A DNA stretch of 64,000 bases, taken from the NCBI GenBank assembly GCA_016840085.1, contig JAEOTA010000014.1:1-64000 (forward strand), given 5' to 3'. Under the pieces are notes generated by a model. It was not told where the DNA came from. It saw only the letters and a list, made by a program, of their open reading frames with translations, and searched no databases. Source of the DNA: Promethearchaeota archaeon (lineage in GTDB: Archaea; Asgardarchaeota; Lokiarchaeia; Sigyniarchaeales; SOKP01). Below, piece by piece: positions 169-52,437 of the stretch; positions within the stretch are counted from its first letter, which is position 1; every line of letters begins with the position of its first letter. The position numbers and the translations under genes are program-made.

Positions 169-1482
169 TTAAAGGGCTTCAACCACAGTTGAAATACCCA
201 CACCAGCACCGCCACACATTAATTGCACACCGTATTTCTTATTGTTATTCTTCAAGTAGTGTACCATTTCTGTGAAATAAACCACTCCACTAGCCCCTAT
301 CGGATGTCCTATTGCGATTGCCCCGCCTGTAGGGTTTACTCGGGGATCATCAAATTCATATCCGAAATCCTTTGCAAATGCCAAACATGGGCTTGCAAAA
401 GCTTCATTAGGTTCGATTACATCCATATCATCTATTGTAAGATCAGCACGTCTTAAAGCTTTTCTCATGGCGGGAATTGGTGCCAAAAGCATGATAACAG
501 GCTCACCACCAGCAACTGCAGTTGATAGTATTCGAGCCATTGGTTTTAATCCAAGTTGATCTGCTTTCTCTCGCGACATTAACAATACTGCTGCTGCTGC
601 ATCAACTATCTGTGAAGAATTTCCGGCAGTTACTTTCCCGTGTTTTTCAGCGGACCTGAATACAGGTTTCAAACTACTTATCATCTCCCATCCTTTTTCT
701 GGGTTATCCAGATACACCTCACGTACAGTCTGATCTGTTGTTACTGTGACTTCTTCTACTTTCTGTTTTCCTGTTTTTTCATCTTTAATAGGATTCATTT
801 CTTCATCTGTATATCTCTTTAAATAAGTAACTGGAACCACTCGTTTGAAGTACTTTTCCTCATTACGCATTGCTTTAGTAGCCTTTTGATGGCTCCACAT
901 GCCAAAATGATCAAGTTCTTCTCTTGTAAAACTATATTTATCGTTTATCAACTCTGATGAAACACCTTGGGGAACCATTTTTCTCACCGGATCTTCCCTC
1001 ATTTTTTGTGAATAAATCACAGGATACTTTGGAATACGTCCAAAAATTTGCATGTCTGAACCCATTGCATAATGTGTCATTGATTCGACTCCTCCAGCAA
1101 TGCAAATATCACCGTCACCAACTTTTATCGCGTTAGCCACTGTATTGACGGCTTGAAGTCCTGCATTACAATATCTATTAACAGTTGCTCCTGCTATTTC
1201 TTCAGGTAATCCTGCCATTAATAATGCAAACCTTGCAATATTGCCACCTTGTTCTCCTATTTGTGATAAACATCCCACATGGCAATCTTCAATTTCTTTT
1301 GGATCGAAATCTGGACATATTTTTTTTGTTCTTTCAACAATCTGCTGTAACACTGTTATTAATAAGTCTTGCGCTGAGCATTCTCTAAAAGCACCTCCAA
1401 GTTTTTTCATTTGCGCTCTACTTGATTTCCCTACGGGTGTTCTAATAGCATCAATAACTACACATTCTCTTAATTCTTTCAT
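169..1482 (-). CDS. Thiolase (acetyl-CoA C-acyltransferase)
   Basis: VNRYCNAG catalytic Cys, NEAFA, GHPIGASG and CGGAG thiolase motifs. Confidence 0.95.
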   Translation of the reverse strand: MKELRECVVIDAIRTPVGKSSRAQMKKLGGAFRECSAQDLLITVLQQIVERTKKICPDFDPKEIEDCHVGCLSQIGEQGGNIARFALLMAGLPEEIAGATVNRYCNAGLQAVNTVANAIKVGDGDICIAGGVESMTHYAMGSDMQIFGRIPKYPVIYSQKMREDPVRKMVPQGVSSELINDKYSFTREELDHFGMWSHQKATKAMRNEEKYFKRVVPVTYLKRYTDEEMNPIKDEKTGKQKVEEVTVTTDQTVREVYLDNPEKGWEMISSLKPVFRSAEKHGKVTAGNSSQIVDAAAAVLLMSREKADQLGLKPMARILSTAVAGGEPVIMLLAPIPAMRKALRRADLTIDDMDVIEPNEAFASPCLAFAKDFGYEFDDPRVNPTGGAIAIGHPIGASGVVYFTEMVHYLKNNNKKYGVQLMCGGAGVGISTVVEAL

Positions 1483-39563: not shown

Positions 39564-40817
39564 TTGATTGATATTAATCCGTTTGAAAGTGCTAAAAAGA
39601 AACTAGATATTGCTGCAAGATTAATAGATCTAAATTCAAACACTTTAGAATATCTAAAAAAAGTAGAGAGAGCATTAATCGTTTCTATTCCTATTCTTAT
39701 GGATGACGGTTCTCTTAAAATTTTTGAAGGATATAGGGTTCATCACTCAACCTTAAGAGGTCCAGCAAAAGGAGGTATAAGATATTCTCCAGATGTTACC
39801 CTTGACGAAATTAAAGCTTTAGCGTTTTTAATGACCTTTAAAACAAGTCTTTTAAACTTACCTTTTGGAGGTTCTAAAGGTGGTGTTTGTATAGATACTA
39901 AAAAATTTTCGAATAGTGAATTAGAAAAATTAACTAGAAGATATACTGCTGAGATTATTAATATGATTGGCCCCGATATAGATATTCCGGCACCAGATAT
40001 GTATACAGATTCAACAATTATGGCTTGGATCATGGATACATATAGTATGCAAAAAGGACGAACTATTCCGGGTGTGGTAACTGGTAAACCTATTGAAATT
40101 GGAGGTTCTGTAGGAAGAATTGAAGCCCCTGGAACAGGAATAACATATTTGCTAGATCACTTGTGTCAGAGATTAAATTATGATTTAACAAAAATGAAAG
40201 TTGTAATCCAAGGGTTTGGGAAAGTAGGATCTGTTGTTGCTAAGCAATTATGTACAACAAATTGTAATATAATTGCAGTTTCTGAAAAAGAGGGGGGAAT
40301 ATTTTCGCCGGATGGCTTAGATATTGACGATTTAATTTCATGGAAACAACAGGGAAATCTATTAAAAGATTATGAAGGAAAAAATATTAATCCAATAACT
40401 AATGATGACTTACTAAAAACTAAATGCGATGTTTTAATTCCTGCTGCTGTTGAAAATCAAATATATAGCAAAAATGCGGATAAAATCGATTGCAAAATTA
40501 TATTGGAGGGTGCAAATAGTCCAACAACATCCCAAGCAGATGCAATCTTGAATGAAAAAGGAGTAATTATCGTTCCAGATATTCTAGCAAATAGTGGGGG
40601 CGTATGTGTTTCATATTTTGAATATATACAAGACATCCACAGCTATTTTTGGGGATTAGATCGTGTTAATAGAGAAATGAAAAATATTCTCATTAAATCT
40701 TTTGAAGATGTCTATATAATTTCAAAGGAAATGCATACAACACTCAGAACAGCAGCATTTGCTATTGGAGCAAAAAGATTAGCGAAAGCACATGAATTAA
40801 GAGGTTTATTTCCATAA
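39564..40817 (+). CDS. Glutamate dehydrogenase-like (copy 2, divergent cofactor motifs)
   Basis: GGSKGG and PAPD present, but EAPG for the usual ATG, GFGKVG, AVSE and GANSPT. Confidence 0.88.
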   Translation: MIDINPFESAKKKLDIAARLIDLNSNTLEYLKKVERALIVSIPILMDDGSLKIFEGYRVHHSTLRGPAKGGIRYSPDVTLDEIKALAFLMTFKTSLLNLPFGGSKGGVCIDTKKFSNSELEKLTRRYTAEIINMIGPDIDIPAPDMYTDSTIMAWIMDTYSMQKGRTIPGVVTGKPIEIGGSVGRIEAPGTGITYLLDHLCQRLNYDLTKMKVVIQGFGKVGSVVAKQLCTTNCNIIAVSEKEGGIFSPDGLDIDDLISWKQQGNLLKDYEGKNINPITNDDLLKTKCDVLIPAAVENQIYSKNADKIDCKIILEGANSPTTSQADAILNEKGVIIVPDILANSGGVCVSYFEYIQDIHSYFWGLDRVNREMKNILIKSFEDVYIISKEMHTTLRTAAFAIGAKRLAKAHELRGLFP

Positions 40818-40968
40818 TCTTTTATAATCAAATCTTAAAGATTGATTAAATCTGTGATTTAAATAAATTTTAATATGATTAAAAAGGTATTTCAAAAAAA
40901 AATAAGTAAAGGTTACCAGAAAAAAAATCTAAAAATACAGTTTAAGAAATTGAATAATATTAAAAATA

Positions 40969-42234
40969 TTGGAGTTAAATAAGATGGAAATAAATCCTTT
41001 TGAAATAGTCCAAAAACAGATAGATGTAGTCTTAGAAGAAATAAGCTTAGATCCTAATACTGGTCAGTTTTTAAGAAGAATCGAGCGTTCATTAATAGTT
41101 TCGATCCCAATTATGATGGATGATGGGAAAATGAAAATTTTTGAAGGATATAGAGTACATCATTCTACAATACGAGGACCAGGAAAGGGAGGTATAAGAT
41201 ATTCTCCACATGTTAATCTCGATGAAGTAAAAGCTCTAGCAACTTGGATGACATGGAAAACAAGCCTTTTAAACTTACCTTTAGGAGGCGCTAAAGGAGG
41301 TATATGTGTGGATCCCATGAAATTATCTAAAAGAGAATTAGAAAGATTAACAAGAAGATATACAGCTGAAATAATTAATATTATTGGACCGGATATAGAT
41401 ATTCCTGCTCCTGATATGAATACTAATGCTCAAGTTATGGCATGGATTATGGATGTATATAGCATGCAAAAAGGAAGAACAATTCCAGGAGTTGTGACCG
41501 GAAAACCTATTGAAATAGGTGGATCTGTGGGTAGAGAAAGTGCTACGGGTATGGGTATGTTTTATGTGCTTCAAGCATCATGCAATAAATTAGATATTGA
41601 TTTAAAATCGATGAGGATTATAATTCAAGGATTTGGTAATGTTGGAGGTTGGATTGCTAATATATTATATGAAAATGGTAGTAAAATTCTTGCAGTTTCA
41701 GATATATCAGGCGGAATTTTTTCTGAAAATGGGCTTAATATTAAAGAATTATTAGAATGGAGAAACCAAGGAAAATTATTGAAAGATTTTCAAAAAAATA
41801 ATCATAAGCATATTACAAATGAAGAATTACTTACACAAGAGTGTGATGTTTTGATTCCAGCAGCCTTAGAGAATCAAATAACTGAAATTAATGCCGATAA
41901 AATAAATTGCAAGATTGTATTAGAAGGCGCAAACGGCCCTACAACTCCAGATGCGGATAAAATTCTCTATAATAAAGGAATCTATGTAATTCCTGATATT
42001 TTAGCTAATTCTGGTGGTGTTTGCGTATCTTATTTTGAATATATTCAAGATATTCATAGTTACTTTTGGGATTTAGACCGTGTGAATCAAGAACTTAAAA
42101 AGATCATTGTAGACGCATTTGAGAGCGTATATAGTGTCTCAAAAGAAAGAAATCTGCCCTTAAGGACAGCCGCTTATATAATTGCCCTTTCTCGTGTAGC
42201 AAAAGCCATTGAATTAAGAGGTATTTTTCCATAA
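40969..42234 (+). CDS. gdhA: Glutamate dehydrogenase (copy 3)
   Basis: GGAKGG, PAPDM, GRESATG, QGFGNVG. Confidence 0.92.
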   Translation: MELNKMEINPFEIVQKQIDVVLEEISLDPNTGQFLRRIERSLIVSIPIMMDDGKMKIFEGYRVHHSTIRGPGKGGIRYSPHVNLDEVKALATWMTWKTSLLNLPLGGAKGGICVDPMKLSKRELERLTRRYTAEIINIIGPDIDIPAPDMNTNAQVMAWIMDVYSMQKGRTIPGVVTGKPIEIGGSVGRESATGMGMFYVLQASCNKLDIDLKSMRIIIQGFGNVGGWIANILYENGSKILAVSDISGGIFSENGLNIKELLEWRNQGKLLKDFQKNNHKHITNEELLTQECDVLIPAALENQITEINADKINCKIVLEGANGPTTPDADKILYNKGIYVIPDILANSGGVCVSYFEYIQDIHSYFWDLDRVNQELKKIIVDAFESVYSVSKERNLPLRTAAYIIALSRVAKAIELRGIFP

Positions 42235-42311: not shown

Positions 42312-42839
42312 ATGGAATTATCCTTTAAAGTTATTATTGTTGGACCTGGTGCGGTTGGTAAAACAAGTTTACTAAACAGGTTTGTACATAACGAATTTAA
42401 TTTAAAATATAAATTAACTATTGGTGTTGATTTTTTAACTAAAAATTTAGAATATAAACCATCAAAATTTGCTAAACTCCAAATATGGGATATAGGAGGT
42501 CAAGAAAGATTCAAATTTTTACATCGTAGCTTTTATGATGGTGCTTTTGGTGCATTGCTTGTATTTGATCTTTCAAGACAACATACATTTTCACGTATGA
42601 AAATTTGGCTTTCAGAAATGCGTAGTATTGTTTTAAATGATATACCTAAAGTAATAATAGGGAATAAATCTGATTTAATTCCTGAAATTGGTCAGATTAT
42701 AGATCGGAATGAAGTAGAAAAATATGCAAAAAATGAAGGTTGTTTATATATTGAGACCTCAGCTAAAACGGGGGACAATGTTGAAAAAGCTTTTCTCGAA
42801 CTTACGAATCACATAGTAAAAAAGGAAGAGAAAAAATAA
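42312..42839 (+). CDS. Rab-like small GTPase
   Basis: GPGAVGKTS, TIGVDF, WDIGGQERF, NKSD, ETSAK; no C-terminal Cys prenylation motif. Confidence 0.95.
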   Translation: MELSFKVIIVGPGAVGKTSLLNRFVHNEFNLKYKLTIGVDFLTKNLEYKPSKFAKLQIWDIGGQERFKFLHRSFYDGAFGALLVFDLSRQHTFSRMKIWLSEMRSIVLNDIPKVIIGNKSDLIPEIGQIIDRNEVEKYAKNEGCLYIETSAKTGDNVEKAFLELTNHIVKKEEKK

Positions 42840-46053: not shown

Positions 46054-46275
46054 TTACTCATAGGCTAACCTAAATAATCTACTTTTATCTAAGTCATTCT
46101 CTTCTTTACATTTAGGGCAAATCCAGATCTTATCATTTTTTTTAACTGAATTAATACAATCATGACAGATTGCAATATCACATATACAATAATAAGTTCT
46201 ATCCATAGAATCTTTGCAACTCTTACCGCAAGTAAAACAAATTGGTGGAGTTCGTGTCATTTTTAACTTAAACAA
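46054..46275 (-). CDS. Stand-alone C4C4 RING-type zinc finger protein
   Basis: C-x2-C-x13-C-x-C-x4-C-x2-C-x12-C-x2-C. Confidence 0.75.
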   Translation of the reverse strand: MFKLKMTRTPPICFTCGKSCKDSMDRTYYCICDIAICHDCINSVKKNDKIWICPKCKEENDLDKSRLFRLAYE

Positions 46276-46550: not shown

Positions 46551-46829
46551 TTATTTCTTTTTCTTCAAAAACCCTGGAATCATTCCATCAAGACCAAGAT
46601 TCTTCAAAATAGTATCTCTTACATTCATCTGAATTGTTAAATCTGACATCATTTTCATGGCATCCTCTAATGCTTTTGAGAAATTTTCACTCGCCTCTTT
46701 TATGGCTTGGGAAGTTGAATTTAAGGATTCCCTAATAGCAAGATTGGTCTCATGTAATTCTTCTGTTAATTTTTCCATGCTATTTCGCATTTCAGAAAGT
46801 TCATTTTTTAACTCTTTTATTCCAGCCAT
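46551..46829 (-). CDS. Small coiled-coil protein
   Basis: Heptad-like pattern, basic C-terminus. Confidence 0.7.
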   Translation of the reverse strand: MAGIKELKNELSEMRNSMEKLTEELHETNLAIRESLNSTSQAIKEASENFSKALEDAMKMMSDLTIQMNVRDTILKNLGLDGMIPGFLKKKK

Positions 46830-47150
46830 TTTTTTCCATTATTCTCGTTGTTAAGCTAAATAAATATTTAATATTTATTAAAATTATCAACTAGCATAGA
46901 ATATGTAAGGTTTCGCTTTTAAAAATTTATTATTTGTAGATCTCCCTTAAATTTATATGGTATTTTCAGAATTATTTTTATAAACTAAAATGATAAATTT
47001 TTATTTTAGTTGTAAAGACTTTACATTTACATCAATAGAATTTTCATTTCTAATTTAATACTTCATACTCCATTCTTATTATTAATAACAATAATATATT
47101 TATTTCTTTGATAGATTTTAAATATAAAAACATAAAAACAGATTAAAATT

Positions 47151-47291
47151 ATGTCAGAATGGAAAGAAAAATTAGACAGTTCAAAAAAAGACGAATTCTT
47201 TTGCACAGGATGAGGTATAGTTGATGGAATTATTCGATGTATTAAAAATATCAAAATTAGACACCATAAGAAAAGAATTTCAAAAAATTAA
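47151..47291 (+). CDS. Candidate micro-selenoprotein 1 (CxxU), 46 aa
   Basis: MSEWKEKLDSSKKDEFFCTG-UGA(47211)-GIVDGIIRCIKNIKIRHHKKRISKN-TAA; TATA-like TTTAAATA about 30 nt upstream. Confidence 0.6.
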
Positions 47292-47295
47292 AACA

Positions 47296-47363
47296 AATCT
47301 CAAGGATTAGATTTAAAAAATATTAGGAACTAATCCTATGAATTCAGCCAAGAATTCGAGATT
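47296..47363 (+). ncRNA. Conserved 3'UTR structured element, copy 1 (SECIS-like candidate)
   Basis: AATCTC/GAGATT closing stem; AGGATTAG/CTAATCCT stem with AAAAAATATTAG loop; GAATTC/GAATTC hairpin. Confidence 0.55.
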
Positions 47364-47521
47364 ATATCTTATTGTTTCACTTTTTTATATTAAATTAATA
47401 AAAGTTAAACCGTTTTTATAAAAAATTCACATTCTGATAGTAGCTTCTATTATTTATAATCGCTACCCTTTTTTCTTTAGGATACTTCAAAAGATTAGAA
47501 CATTAAAAGGTGTTTGTTAAA

Positions 47522-47665
47522 ATGGCTGAACAGAGAGATTATATTGATATTGATTATGACGAAAACTGTTATAATTCCAGTTGATCTTTTATTGATATGT
47601 GGTATCGAAGAGCACGCAAACTCAAAAAATTAAAAGAAAAACAGAGTAAAACAAATAATAAATAG
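47522..47665 (+). CDS. Candidate micro-selenoprotein 2, 47 aa
   Basis: MAEQRDYIDIDYDENCYNSS-UGA(47582)-SFIDMWYRRARKLKKLKEKQSKTNNK-TAG; AGGTG SD at 47508. Confidence 0.55.
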
Positions 47666-47729
47666 AATCTCAAAAAATTAAATCAAAAATGGTAGGATTT
47701 AATTCTAAGTTCTGCGTGAACAAGAGGTT
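47666..47729 (+). ncRNA. Conserved 3'UTR structured element, copy 2 (SECIS-like candidate)
   Basis: AATCTC/GAGGTT closing stem; AATTAAATC/GATTTAATT stem with AAAAATGGTAG loop; GTTC/GAAC hairpin. Confidence 0.55.
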
Positions 47730-47759: not shown

Positions 47760-49145
47760 TTATGAGGGTATATGTGTTGGCGTATTCGATCCTTCTCCAA
47801 CTTTCCTATAAGTGAATCCCTTTTCCTCAACCAATTTTTTCTTAAAGATATTTCTGCCATCAATAATAATAGGTGTTTTCACTTTACTCTTTAAATCATC
47901 AAGATCAATATCATAATACTCACTATGGTTTGTGGCAAAAATGAGAACGTCAGCTCCAGAAACAGCTTTATTAAAGTCATTCGTTAATTCTGTGGCGTTG
48001 TAATCTCGCGGTTTCACATAAGGATCATGCGCAATAAATGTTATGTTGTGAGAATGATACCTATTTTTTAAGAATTTAACAATATTTTCAGTTGGTGTAT
48101 TACGAGTGTCATCTGTATTTGCCTTGTAAGAAATCCCTAATAAAGTAATTTTGATATTGTCTACTACTTTGCGTGATTCTCTAAAAGTATCTTCCATCAA
48201 TTCTATTATATGACGAGGCATGAAATCATTCAAATCTCTTGCTTTTAGCAAAATATCAGAGTTGAATTTATGTTCCGTGTATGTGCGATGACCATATTCG
48301 AGTAAATGAGGATCCTTTGTAAGACAATGACCTCCTACGCCTGAACCAGGATAATGCATCATTCGATCATCCCTTTGGTTAATTAATTCTATAATCTCAA
48401 ATATATTTCTATTAAAGTCTTCACATAATAACGCCATTTCATTTGCAAAAGCTATGTTAACATCCCTATAAGTATTTTCAATACATTTAGTTAATTCGGC
48501 TGTTAATGTATCAGTTACTCTTAATTCCTTCTTGACTACCTTTCCATATAAGAATTTTGCTCTATTATTTGCTTCTTCACACCCTCCTCCAATTACTCGT
48601 TCCATATCAGTTATATATTCGAGTAATTTCCCAGGCATAAGGCGTTCGAATGAAAATACTAGATAAAAATCCTCTCCTCTCTTTAGCCCACTTCCTTCCT
48701 CTAATATCGGTTGTACAATATTATTAGTTGTGCCCGGTGCTACTGTGGATTCAATTATAATCGTAGTTCCTTTTTTATTATGTTTAGATATTTCTTTAGA
48801 AACCTCTTTTAATGATTCGTATCTAGGAACTTTAGAATCTAGGTCAACAGGGGTCTGTACGTCAACTAGAATAAAATCTGCATCATCCACATCATCATAT
48901 TTGTCAGTAACCTTCAATTTTCCATTTTTTGCAACTCTAGCTATTAATTCATCTAAACCTGGCTCCTCTCCCTCAAAAGGATTCTTTCCACTATTGAGCC
49001 AATCAATCTTCCAACCTGATCTTTTTGATCTACGCTGAATTCCAGTAACATAAAAATTATCAACATCAGCTAATAATGCTGCCATTGGTATACCTACATA
49101 CCCCATGCCGATAACAACTATATTAGTTCTATCCATTTTAACCAC
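47760..49145 (-). CDS. Nucleotide-sugar dehydrogenase (WecC/WbpA family)
   Basis: GMGYVG, ESTVAPGTT, ENTYRDVNIA, GVGGHCL, YKANTDDTR. Confidence 0.93.
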   Translation of the reverse strand: MVKMDRTNIVVIGMGYVGIPMAALLADVDNFYVTGIQRRSKRSGWKIDWLNSGKNPFEGEEPGLDELIARVAKNGKLKVTDKYDDVDDADFILVDVQTPVDLDSKVPRYESLKEVSKEISKHNKKGTTIIIESTVAPGTTNNIVQPILEEGSGLKRGEDFYLVFSFERLMPGKLLEYITDMERVIGGGCEEANNRAKFLYGKVVKKELRVTDTLTAELTKCIENTYRDVNIAFANEMALLCEDFNRNIFEIIELINQRDDRMMHYPGSGVGGHCLTKDPHLLEYGHRTYTEHKFNSDILLKARDLNDFMPRHIIELMEDTFRESRKVVDNIKITLLGISYKANTDDTRNTPTENIVKFLKNRYHSHNITFIAHDPYVKPRDYNATELTNDFNKAVSGADVLIFATNHSEYYDIDLDDLKSKVKTPIIIDGRNIFKKKLVEEKGFTYRKVGEGSNTPTHIPS

Positions 49146-51294: not shown

Positions 51295-52437
51295 ATGGGA
51301 ACATGCAAATTCTGTGGTAAACTTGATAGGAATATCTCTGAAGTCCTACAAGTATGTAGGGCTTGTATTCTAAATGGAGATTGGGAGATAATTGAACCAC
51401 ATATTTTCCAAGTGCATAAACAAGTTCGGCAACTCGTTGATTTACCAGATAAACCTCCTAAAGCAGAACGACCAAATATTAAACTAAACTGCAATTACTG
51501 CATAAATGAATGTTCTCTTTCTGAAAATGATGTAAGTTATTGCGGATTAAGAAACATTCAAAGAAAGAACTCAGGGGAATTGCCATTTCCAACAAAATCA
51601 AAGGGTTATATTCATGGCTATATAGATCCAAATCCAACAAATTGTTGCAATGCTTGGTTTTGCCCCGCAGGAACTCCAGCAGGATATCCCGAATTCTCGA
51701 ATTATGAAGGCCCTGAATTTGGTACATACAGCTACGCTGCCTTTCTATATGGATGTACGTTTTCGTGTTTGTTCTGCCAAAATAGTAGCCATAAGCAATT
51801 TCAGAAGCGAAATCTATTTGATGGTGAAGCTTTAGCAAATCAAATAGTAAAAAATGAAAAGATTACTTGTCTATGCTATTTTGGGGGAACTCCCGAATCC
51901 CAATTACCGTTTTCTATTAACTTAGCAGAACTTATTTTAGAAAAAATGGAAAACGAAGATAAAAAGAGAAAATTCAGGATATGCTGGGAATGGAATGGAA
52001 GTGGAAGACAAGATTTAGTAGAAAAATGCATGAGACTCGCAATAAAAACAGGAGGAAATATTAAATTTGATTTAAAAAGTTTCAATGAGAAATTAAATTT
52101 AGCAATGTGTGGTGTCAGTAATAGTAGAACACTTGAAAATTTCAAATTTTTAGCGGAGAAGTATTTTGGAACTAGAGGGAAAGACATGCCAGAGATGAGT
52201 GCGTGTACACTGATGGTTCCCGGATACACTACTCAAGAAGAAGTTGAGCTGATTGCTGAATTTGTTAGTTCCATAAACGAAAATATTCCTTTTAGTTTAT
52301 TAATTTTTCATGGAGATTATCAAATGAGGGATTTAGGGATTACTCCTCGTAAGCAAGCGTTAAAAAGTTTTGAAGTAGCAAAAAAATATTTAAAAAATGT
52401 GAATTTGGGAAATAAATTTCTTTTAGGAATTGTTTAA
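51295..52437 (+). CDS. Radical SAM protein (PflA/AmmeMemoRadiSam-like)
   Basis: GCTFSCLFCQN CxxxCxxC motif, N-terminal Cys clusters, DLK. Confidence 0.88.
   Translation: MGTCKFCGKLDRNISEVLQVCRACILNGDWEIIEPHIFQVHKQVRQLVDLPDKPPKAERPNIKLNCNYCINECSLSENDVSYCGLRNIQRKNSGELPFPTKSKGYIHGYIDPNPTNCCNAWFCPAGTPAGYPEFSNYEGPEFGTYSYAAFLYGCTFSCLFCQNSSHKQFQKRNLFDGEALANQIVKNEKITCLCYFGGTPESQLPFSINLAELILEKMENEDKKRKFRICWEWNGSGRQDLVEKCMRLAIKTGGNIKFDLKSFNEKLNLAMCGVSNSRTLENFKFLAEKYFGTRGKDMPEMSACTLMVPGYTTQEEVELIAEFVSSINENIPFSLLIFHGDYQMRDLGITPRKQALKSFEVAKKYLKNVNLGNKFLLGIV

Follow-up and report, generated by a model that had tools for sequence, protein, structure and literature searches.

Two tandem micro-genes in a Lokiarchaeial genome, ORF1 and ORF2, very probably represent two new families of micro-selenoproteins that are served by a new variant of the Asgard selenocysteine (Sec) insertion signal, as judged from comparison of their sequences with those of their homologues. 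They lie in a 64,000-nucleotide stretch of contig JAEOTA010000014.1 (assembly GCA_016840085.1), which we call the window. In the explanation that we favor, and that we consider likely, both are real small-selenoprotein genes with separate promoters, their internal UGA is read as Sec by way of a 3' RNA element that has lost its core motif, and a Cys and the Sec form a redox or metal pair. A preliminary description of this DNA had proposed Sec micro-proteins overlooked by gene callers. Its translations (46 and 47 amino acids, TGA at codon 21 in both) are confirmed, and the proposal now gains support from conservation of the TGA, dN/dS beyond it, the Sec machinery of the host and Cys exchange in ORF2. 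The features are as follows.

47095-47105, plus strand: A/T-rich, conserved TATA-like box 5' of ORF1 (putative promoter)
47151-47291, plus strand: ORF1, candidate selenoprotein of 46 amino acids with Cys18-x-x-Sec21 and a TAA stop; C-terminal to Sec21, a predicted amphipathic helix and a basic tail
47211-47213, plus strand: in-frame TGA of ORF1 (putative Sec codon)
47296-47363, plus strand: 3' element 1 (candidate SECIS), three-helix junction with side hairpin and no AUGA/GA core; 12-nt loop, with AAA-N4-AG at 47318-47326
47453-47460, plus strand: TATA-like box 5' of ORF2 (putative promoter of its own)
47507-47512, plus strand: putative Shine-Dalgarno-like hexamer 5' of ORF2
47522-47665, plus strand: ORF2, candidate selenoprotein of 47 amino acids with Cys16-x4-Sec21 and a TAG stop; acidic N-half, conserved MWYxR helix (predicted) and basic tail
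47582-47584, plus strand: in-frame TGA of ORF2 (putative Sec codon)
47666-47729, plus strand: 3' element 2 (candidate SECIS), three-helix junction with side hairpin and no AUGA/GA core; 9-bp stem, 11-nt loop at 47685-47695

That the internal UGAs of ORF1 and ORF2 are decoded as Sec is highly likely from the behavior of this codon across homologues, whose counts overstate independence because the copies are kin. When copies were anchored on the N-terminal motif only, the first stop of ORF1 was TGA in 93/93 and TAA or TAG in none, and the frame then stayed open for 21-50 codons in 92 of them, the exception being a frameshifted copy. The same anchoring recovered 68 TGA forms of ORF2, all open for 23-31 further codons, with the other 9 copies being Cys forms. 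Counted by the codon at the site, ORF2 has TGA in 63 copies, TGT or TGC in 11 and nothing else, a lone TAT row having turned out to be a false pattern match. These Cys forms occur in four lineages (G029/G032/G051; G021 and its kin; L156/L176; L158), the first two of which are set apart by the tree. A TGA that never drifts to TAA or TAG and that exchanges with Cys alone is the signature of Sec. The TGA/Cys exchange that had been named as a check is thus seen in ORF2, but not in ORF1, where no Cys or other variant was found at the site among 102 copies; it extends to ORF1 solely through the probable paralogy of the two. Past the TGA, third codon positions vary most, and over 15 codons dN/dS is 0.25 in ORF1 and 0.26 in ORF2 as against 0.9-1.7 in shifted frames (values that are somewhat biased, the copies having been gathered by homology), which is the coding-type conservation that the preliminary description had proposed to look for. 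The TGA is codon 21-26 in ORF1 homologues, 25 being the commonest, so that the common codon-21 position holds for the two genes here and not as a family trait.

The host genome (4.68 Mb, 29.5% GC) encodes the Sec machinery whose presence had been another of the proposed checks. SepSecS is encoded, SelD is present as two tandem genes (C78:5990-8158), both of which contain an in-frame TGA and have a type II element of their own, and there are an EFSec-like factor of 473 aa and a PSTK-like kinase, both scoring below the curated cut-offs while each is the single full-length best match. The tRNA-Sec lies between EFSec and SepSecS (C32:24374-24530) and was located via an anticodon-arm search; it had been missed by Rfam RF01852 and ARAGORN because it carries two introns, one of 34 nt in the D arm and one of 30 nt that is the known T-loop intron. 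Without these it has a 9-bp acceptor, a 7-bp D stem with a 4-nt D loop, a 6-bp anticodon stem with a TCA anticodon, a long variable arm, a 4-bp T stem and a G discriminator, an architecture that agrees with the one given for Lokiarchaeota (PMC4989117). Since SepSecS is found in 153/161 genomes of the host's class, that is, in nearly all of them, its co-occurrence with ORF1 and ORF2 is uninformative.

Behind each ORF, as first described, lies a 3' RNA element that folds as a three-way junction (element 1: -18.5 kcal/mol, z -3.68, model match of 41 bits; element 2: z -2.5, model match of 71 bits). Element 2 starts just past 47665, where the piece that was described first ends. Three parts make up the architecture of the element: a closing stem of 5 bp, a stem of 9-11 bp whose loop measures 11-12 nt, and a short side hairpin, in which GCAA is a frequent loop. 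Paired cells make up 94.7% in the ORF1 type and 90.5% in the ORF2 type, and two-sided changes were found at 9 pairs of element 1 and 11 pairs of element 2, exceeding both shuffled and slid controls; in the ORF1 set the closing stem is too invariant for covariation proof. Across 158 copies the loop measures 12 nt in 114, 11 nt in 40 and some other length in 4, and nearly all carry AAA-N4-AG, with the AAA and the final G near invariant. What the element does not have is the canonical core: AUGA/GA at the stem base occurs in 0/158 copies, a search for a GA or AA quartet partner after the stem found none of the 158 with a TGA..GA pair at that position, and Rfam over the locus gave chance-level matches only, with no SECIS match. 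The element is not a canonical lokiSECIS.

The position of the core-less element follows the UGA more closely than it follows the end of the gene, with a UGA-to-loop spread smaller than the stop-to-loop spread (sd 4.9 nt as against 11.7 nt in one set, 2.6 nt as against 7.8 nt in the other), and the UGA-to-loop distance is close to the 96 nt of VhuU. Five genomes have ORF1 and ORF2 20-30 nt apart with a single common element, which lies 264-278 nt away from the first UGA. Model searches place the core-less element solely behind these micro-genes, and the host genome has it at these two places alone. In two of the four Cys lineages the element behind ORF2 is gone, and ORF1's element stays; the two others keep a recognisable one (57-69 and 38 bits), which may have an RNA-stability role too or may simply be decaying slowly. 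A further genome (L010 of G024, 1305-1374, minus strand) has ORF2 deleted and a decaying remnant of the ORF2 element directly behind element 1. Taken at the level of sequence, it is probable that the three-helix element is the Sec insertion signal of ORF1 and ORF2.

How does this element relate to known SECIS types? Published models of lokiSECIS and of the Asgard eSECIS-like type I elements are defined by the AUGA/GA core (PMC4989117; PMC11227280). The host has canonical elements behind its VhuD, VhuU, Prx-like and SelD genes, in which AUGA precedes a 9-bp stem, the 11-nt loop ends in AG, and GA or AA follows the stem; they have the stem, the AAA-N4-AG loop and the side hairpin in common with the core-less elements. 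The side hairpin of the host's canonical lokiSECIS (on C4, C9, C19, C24, C41, C44, C78 and C82) sits between core and closing stem, often with a GCAA loop, and is not emphasised in PMC4989117 or PMC11227280. The micro-gene element resembles lokiSECIS in its place at the gene's 3' end, where it sometimes overlaps the stop, in its stem of about 9 bp, in its A-rich 11-12-nt loop with a final AG (the lokiSECIS loop in PMC4989117 matches it), in its side hairpin and closing stem, and in that two tandem genes can share a single element, as for HdrA-VhuD. It differs from lokiSECIS in having neither AUGA before nor GA/AA after the stem, hence no kink-turn core, in a stem of 9-11 bp that runs into the junction, and in a loop of mostly 12 nt. 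We infer that it is a lokiSECIS without the kink-turn core; by the motif that defines the lokiSECIS class it lies outside this class, and it would act in a SECIS-like manner. It is also unlike the euryarchaeal SECIS (Methanococcus type), in that it has no GAA_A bulge or three G-C pairs and its upper stem is long and A-U-rich. Under the explanation that we favor, a lokiSECIS ancestor would have lost the AUGA/GA kink-turn core while its stem with the AAA-N4-AG loop, its side hairpin and its closing stem were retained, and EFSec would bring Sec-tRNA to the internal UGA under the control of this three-helix RNA about 105 nt downstream.

Two other readings of the UGA have to be weighed against Sec. 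If it were a true stop, the genes would encode 20-aa peptides followed by a conserved non-coding RNA or a re-initiated mini-ORF, and the hairpin would be a terminator or stability element. ORF2 indeed has ATGs two and five codons past the TGA, the gene caller's 26-aa product (P0025) starts from an ORF2 ATG past the TGA, and both the persistence of the element in two Cys lineages and its remnant where ORF2 is deleted would fit. Under this reading, though, one would expect drift to TAA or TAG, which are 86% of host stops, and it is never seen; ORF1 has no ATG past the TGA and yet shows codon-periodic conservation there, and in the Cys forms a Cys codon joins both halves of ORF2. After an ordinary TGA stop of this genome, the next TAA/TAG comes at a median distance of 8 codons, and at 24 codons or more in only 22% of cases. 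A terminator does not sit well with an element that the genome holds only twice, nor with T-rich tracts that come after the element and are separate from it. We regard a true stop as very improbable, and reading as Trp or another standard residue under a reassigned code as more improbable still, to the point of being negligible. The latter draws on public proteins of both families that show W at the TGA site. All of the six that were checked (6/6) proved to be TGA translated by the gene caller with code 4, no TGG stands at the site among about 175 copies, and genome-wide reassignment is ruled out by the use of TGA as a normal stop, which ends 291/2147 long ORFs. Homologues with Trp or Arg at the site, named in the preliminary description as evidence against Sec, were not found.

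ORF1 and ORF2 are probably two diverged families that arose by an old duplication, rather than the one family first proposed, of which the probable paralogy is what remains: their profiles align end to end, Sec on Sec, with a probability of 78% and an identity of 18%. A Cys is found N-terminal to the Sec in 102/102 copies of ORF1, at position -3, -4, -5 or -8 in 87, 1, 4 and 10 of them. The Cys that had been described before the TGA is thus always present in ORF1, but its CxxU spacing is not invariant, and Cys and Sec would make a flexible pair and no rigid thioredoxin-type CxxU. Likewise, the Asp/Arg pattern described past the TGA stands in part, in that the fourth residue is always Asp in ORF1 but is Asn in 26/38 copies of ORF2, and ORF1 does not keep the Arg. 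AlphaFold predicts for both peptides a single helix that starts at the Sec or just after it (21-45 in ORF1, pLDDT 73-91; 23-45 in ORF2), with a poorly defined N-half and a pTM of 0.36-0.40. The hydrophobic moment of the helix is 0.51 in one peptide and 0.44 in the other, and the charges are -2 and -8 in the N-halves and +8 and +5 in the C-halves.

Pfam, NCBIfam, PDB sequences and the ESM Atlas gave no match that explains either peptide, a search of 1.8 billion proteins returned family members only, and longer or fused forms of ORF1 were looked for and not seen, which is weak evidence. The aromatic-C-x-x-U-G of ORF1 followed by a helix resembles what we take to be the active site of Rdx. ORF1 differs from Rdx and from SelW-SelT-SelH (PF10262) in its length of 46 aa, its lack of a predicted beta sheet and a Cys spacing of 3 to 8; the micro-proteins do not match Pfam Rdx (PF10262) even at E 10, and no thioredoxin-like alpha/beta fold is predicted for them. 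Selenobacteriocin (TIGR04081), KCU-star and the CC/Se-motif bacterial selenopeptides are likewise tiny Sec products overlooked by gene callers, whereas the micro-genes described here have no NCBIfam match or linked maturase and have an archaeal 3' signal, not an in-frame bacterial SECIS. With the known Asgard selenoproteins (SelD, FrhA/VhuU, HdrA, FrhD/VhuD, Prx-like, AhpF-N-like and DsbA-like; PMC11227280) they have an in-frame UGA, a 3' signal and the Sec machinery in common, but they show no sequence match to these families. VhuU likewise measures about 50 aa, and its loop follows the UGA at a distance of about 96 nt. It differs in that its UxxC is a nickel ligand of hydrogenase and its element is canonical, whereas the micro-proteins have the Cys before the Sec and no enzyme operon; the C-terminal UxxC motif of VhuU/FrhA is absent from them, and the host's own VhuU lies elsewhere.

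What might such peptides do? No family, structure or neighbor indicates a specific function (Pfam, NCBIfam, PDB, Atlas and synteny). In the products, of about 5.5 kDa, an amphipathic helix rich in Lys and Arg would begin with the Sec, and the Cys would lie 3-8 residues N-terminal to the Sec, within a flexible acidic segment. The pair would cycle as a selenenylsulfide or ligate a soft metal, and the basic helix would hold the peptide at a membrane surface or a partner. We lean slightly toward a redox or metal-binding role for the Cys/Sec pair, and anchoring to a membrane or partner through the helix is possible at somewhat less than even chances. That Cys alone takes the place of Sec indicates that chalcogen chemistry matters, and it speaks, for ORF2 at least, against a store of selenium and against a pure on/off switch.

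It is also conceivable that the genes act as a selenium gauge, in which the UGA switches between a short acidic peptide at low selenium and the full basic-helix peptide at high selenium, with the element setting a low or tunable read-through. The half before the UGA is indeed acidic and the half after it basic and helical, ORF1 is never exchanged to Cys, and the element is unlike the one used by the host's own enzyme selenoproteins. We nevertheless find this unlikely, because ORF2 has turned into a constitutive Cys form on four occasions and was kept open, and because the upstream Cys, which a pure switch does not need, is retained. Attenuation by a leader peptide does not fit either, as there is no same-strand downstream gene and the next gene is convergent. 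Their size, acidic N-part and cationic amphipathic C-part, together with a radical SAM gene 3.6 kb away (51295-52437), might instead suggest Sec-bearing precursors for post-translational modification (RiPP-like, compare selenobacteriocins) or membrane-active peptides. This is improbable, and more so than a gauge: the radical SAM enzyme looks like glycyl-radical activases/AmmeMemoRadiSam, with scores far under the cut-off, the conserved neighbors encode a sugar-nucleotide dehydrogenase and a coiled-coil protein of 92 aa rather than maturases, no leader motif, peptidase or exporter adjoins, NCBIfam gives no match, and the low diversification (dN/dS 0.25) is unlike that of antimicrobial peptides.

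Both micro-genes occupy the gap between a divergent gene at 46551-46829 (minus strand) and a convergent one at 47760-49145 (minus strand). The former encodes the 92-aa coiled-coil protein of no known family, is kept in 55/83 loci (synteny was checked within about 1.5 kb) and, being divergent from ORF1, could have a common promoter region with it; the latter, the nucleotide-sugar dehydrogenase gene, is kept in 68/83. A TATTTA hexamer lies 50-59 nt 5' of the ORF1 start in 34/41 copies and TTTATA 65-69 nt 5' of the ORF2 start in 32/38, and many homologues have GGTG/GAGG words similar to the Shine-Dalgarno-like hexamer of ORF2. Scans for sigma-70 promoters and hairpin terminators, both ill-suited to archaea, gave nothing above chance. 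Intergenic micro-ORFs with the shape of ORF1 and ORF2 number 6 in the 4.68-Mb genome, of which 2 are ORF1 and ORF2; with both also conserved in dozens of genomes, the pair is more than a product of chance. Elsewhere in the window, a stand-alone 73-aa RING/FYVE-like zinc finger (46054-46275, minus strand; best Pfam match zf-RING_4, E 0.001, below cut-off) is often retained near the micro-genes, and two tandem genes that look glutamate-dehydrogenase-like by sequence (39564-42234, plus strand) are followed by a Rab-like small GTPase (42312-42839).

The two families appear to be confined to one Lokiarchaeial family, that of the host, in which ORF1 is found in 105/134 genomes and ORF2 in 63/134, ORF1 often being present without ORF2. 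Outside it, searches of the class's remaining families and of another 239 genomes from the phylum gave no ORF1, bar one match that we treat as chance (G327, E 1e-3, within a 575-aa frame), and ORF2 was not found outside the host's family. The RNA-element model agrees, with matches in 100/126 genomes within the family and 0/24 outside. The complete genomes G068 (4.4 Mb) and G079 (6.0 Mb) have neither ORF. One copy sits on an LAZR contig, which we take to be from the Loki's Castle metagenome. G006 has a second locus (C1:190009-191484; L135, L141) with two extra ORF2 copies and their elements, as well as a further element (190009-190080) with no micro-gene recognised upstream, and G046 and G010 have a third element each. 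One ORF1 copy (L118 in G150) is frameshifted before the TGA with its element intact, and is either a pseudogene or an assembly error.

A survey of more than 400 Asgard genomes listed seven selenoprotein families (PMC11227280), and those published for Asgard archaea have all been detected through homology or through the AUGA/GA core (PMC11227280, PMC4989117). None of the 119 prokaryotic selenoprotein families in a 2026 inventory (PMC13188914) matches ORF1 or ORF2 by motif, size or profile, and we found no account of either in the literature, of which our coverage is incomplete. Both families escape homology and core-motif filters, which implies that the Asgard selenoproteome is under-counted. 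The host genome also has a 121-aa ORF with two adjacent in-frame TGAs after Gly-Cys (GCUU; C19:107226-107588, plus strand), followed by a canonical lokiSECIS (loop 107609), which is not obviously any of the seven known Asgard families. A candidate for another small selenoprotein is an ORF of 78 aa (C82:24200-24436, plus strand) that has one hydrophobic segment, contains an in-frame TGA (U-x3-C) and is again followed by a canonical lokiSECIS.

We speculate, with considerable reserve, that the core-less element is a second, kink-turn-independent class of Asgard Sec signal, which would give the micro-proteins a selenium-tuned read-through and so add a sensing or buffering layer to selenium and redox control. 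If this were true, the archaeal machinery would read the AAA-N4-AG loop, the stem and the side hairpin, and not the eukaryote-like core. No SBP2 has been found in Asgard genomes (PMC11227280). With core-bearing and core-less elements in one genome, and with Cys revertants that have no element, the question of what reads the SECIS becomes directly testable by part swaps, and the identity of the reader of the archaeal SECIS bears on the origin of the eukaryotic signal.
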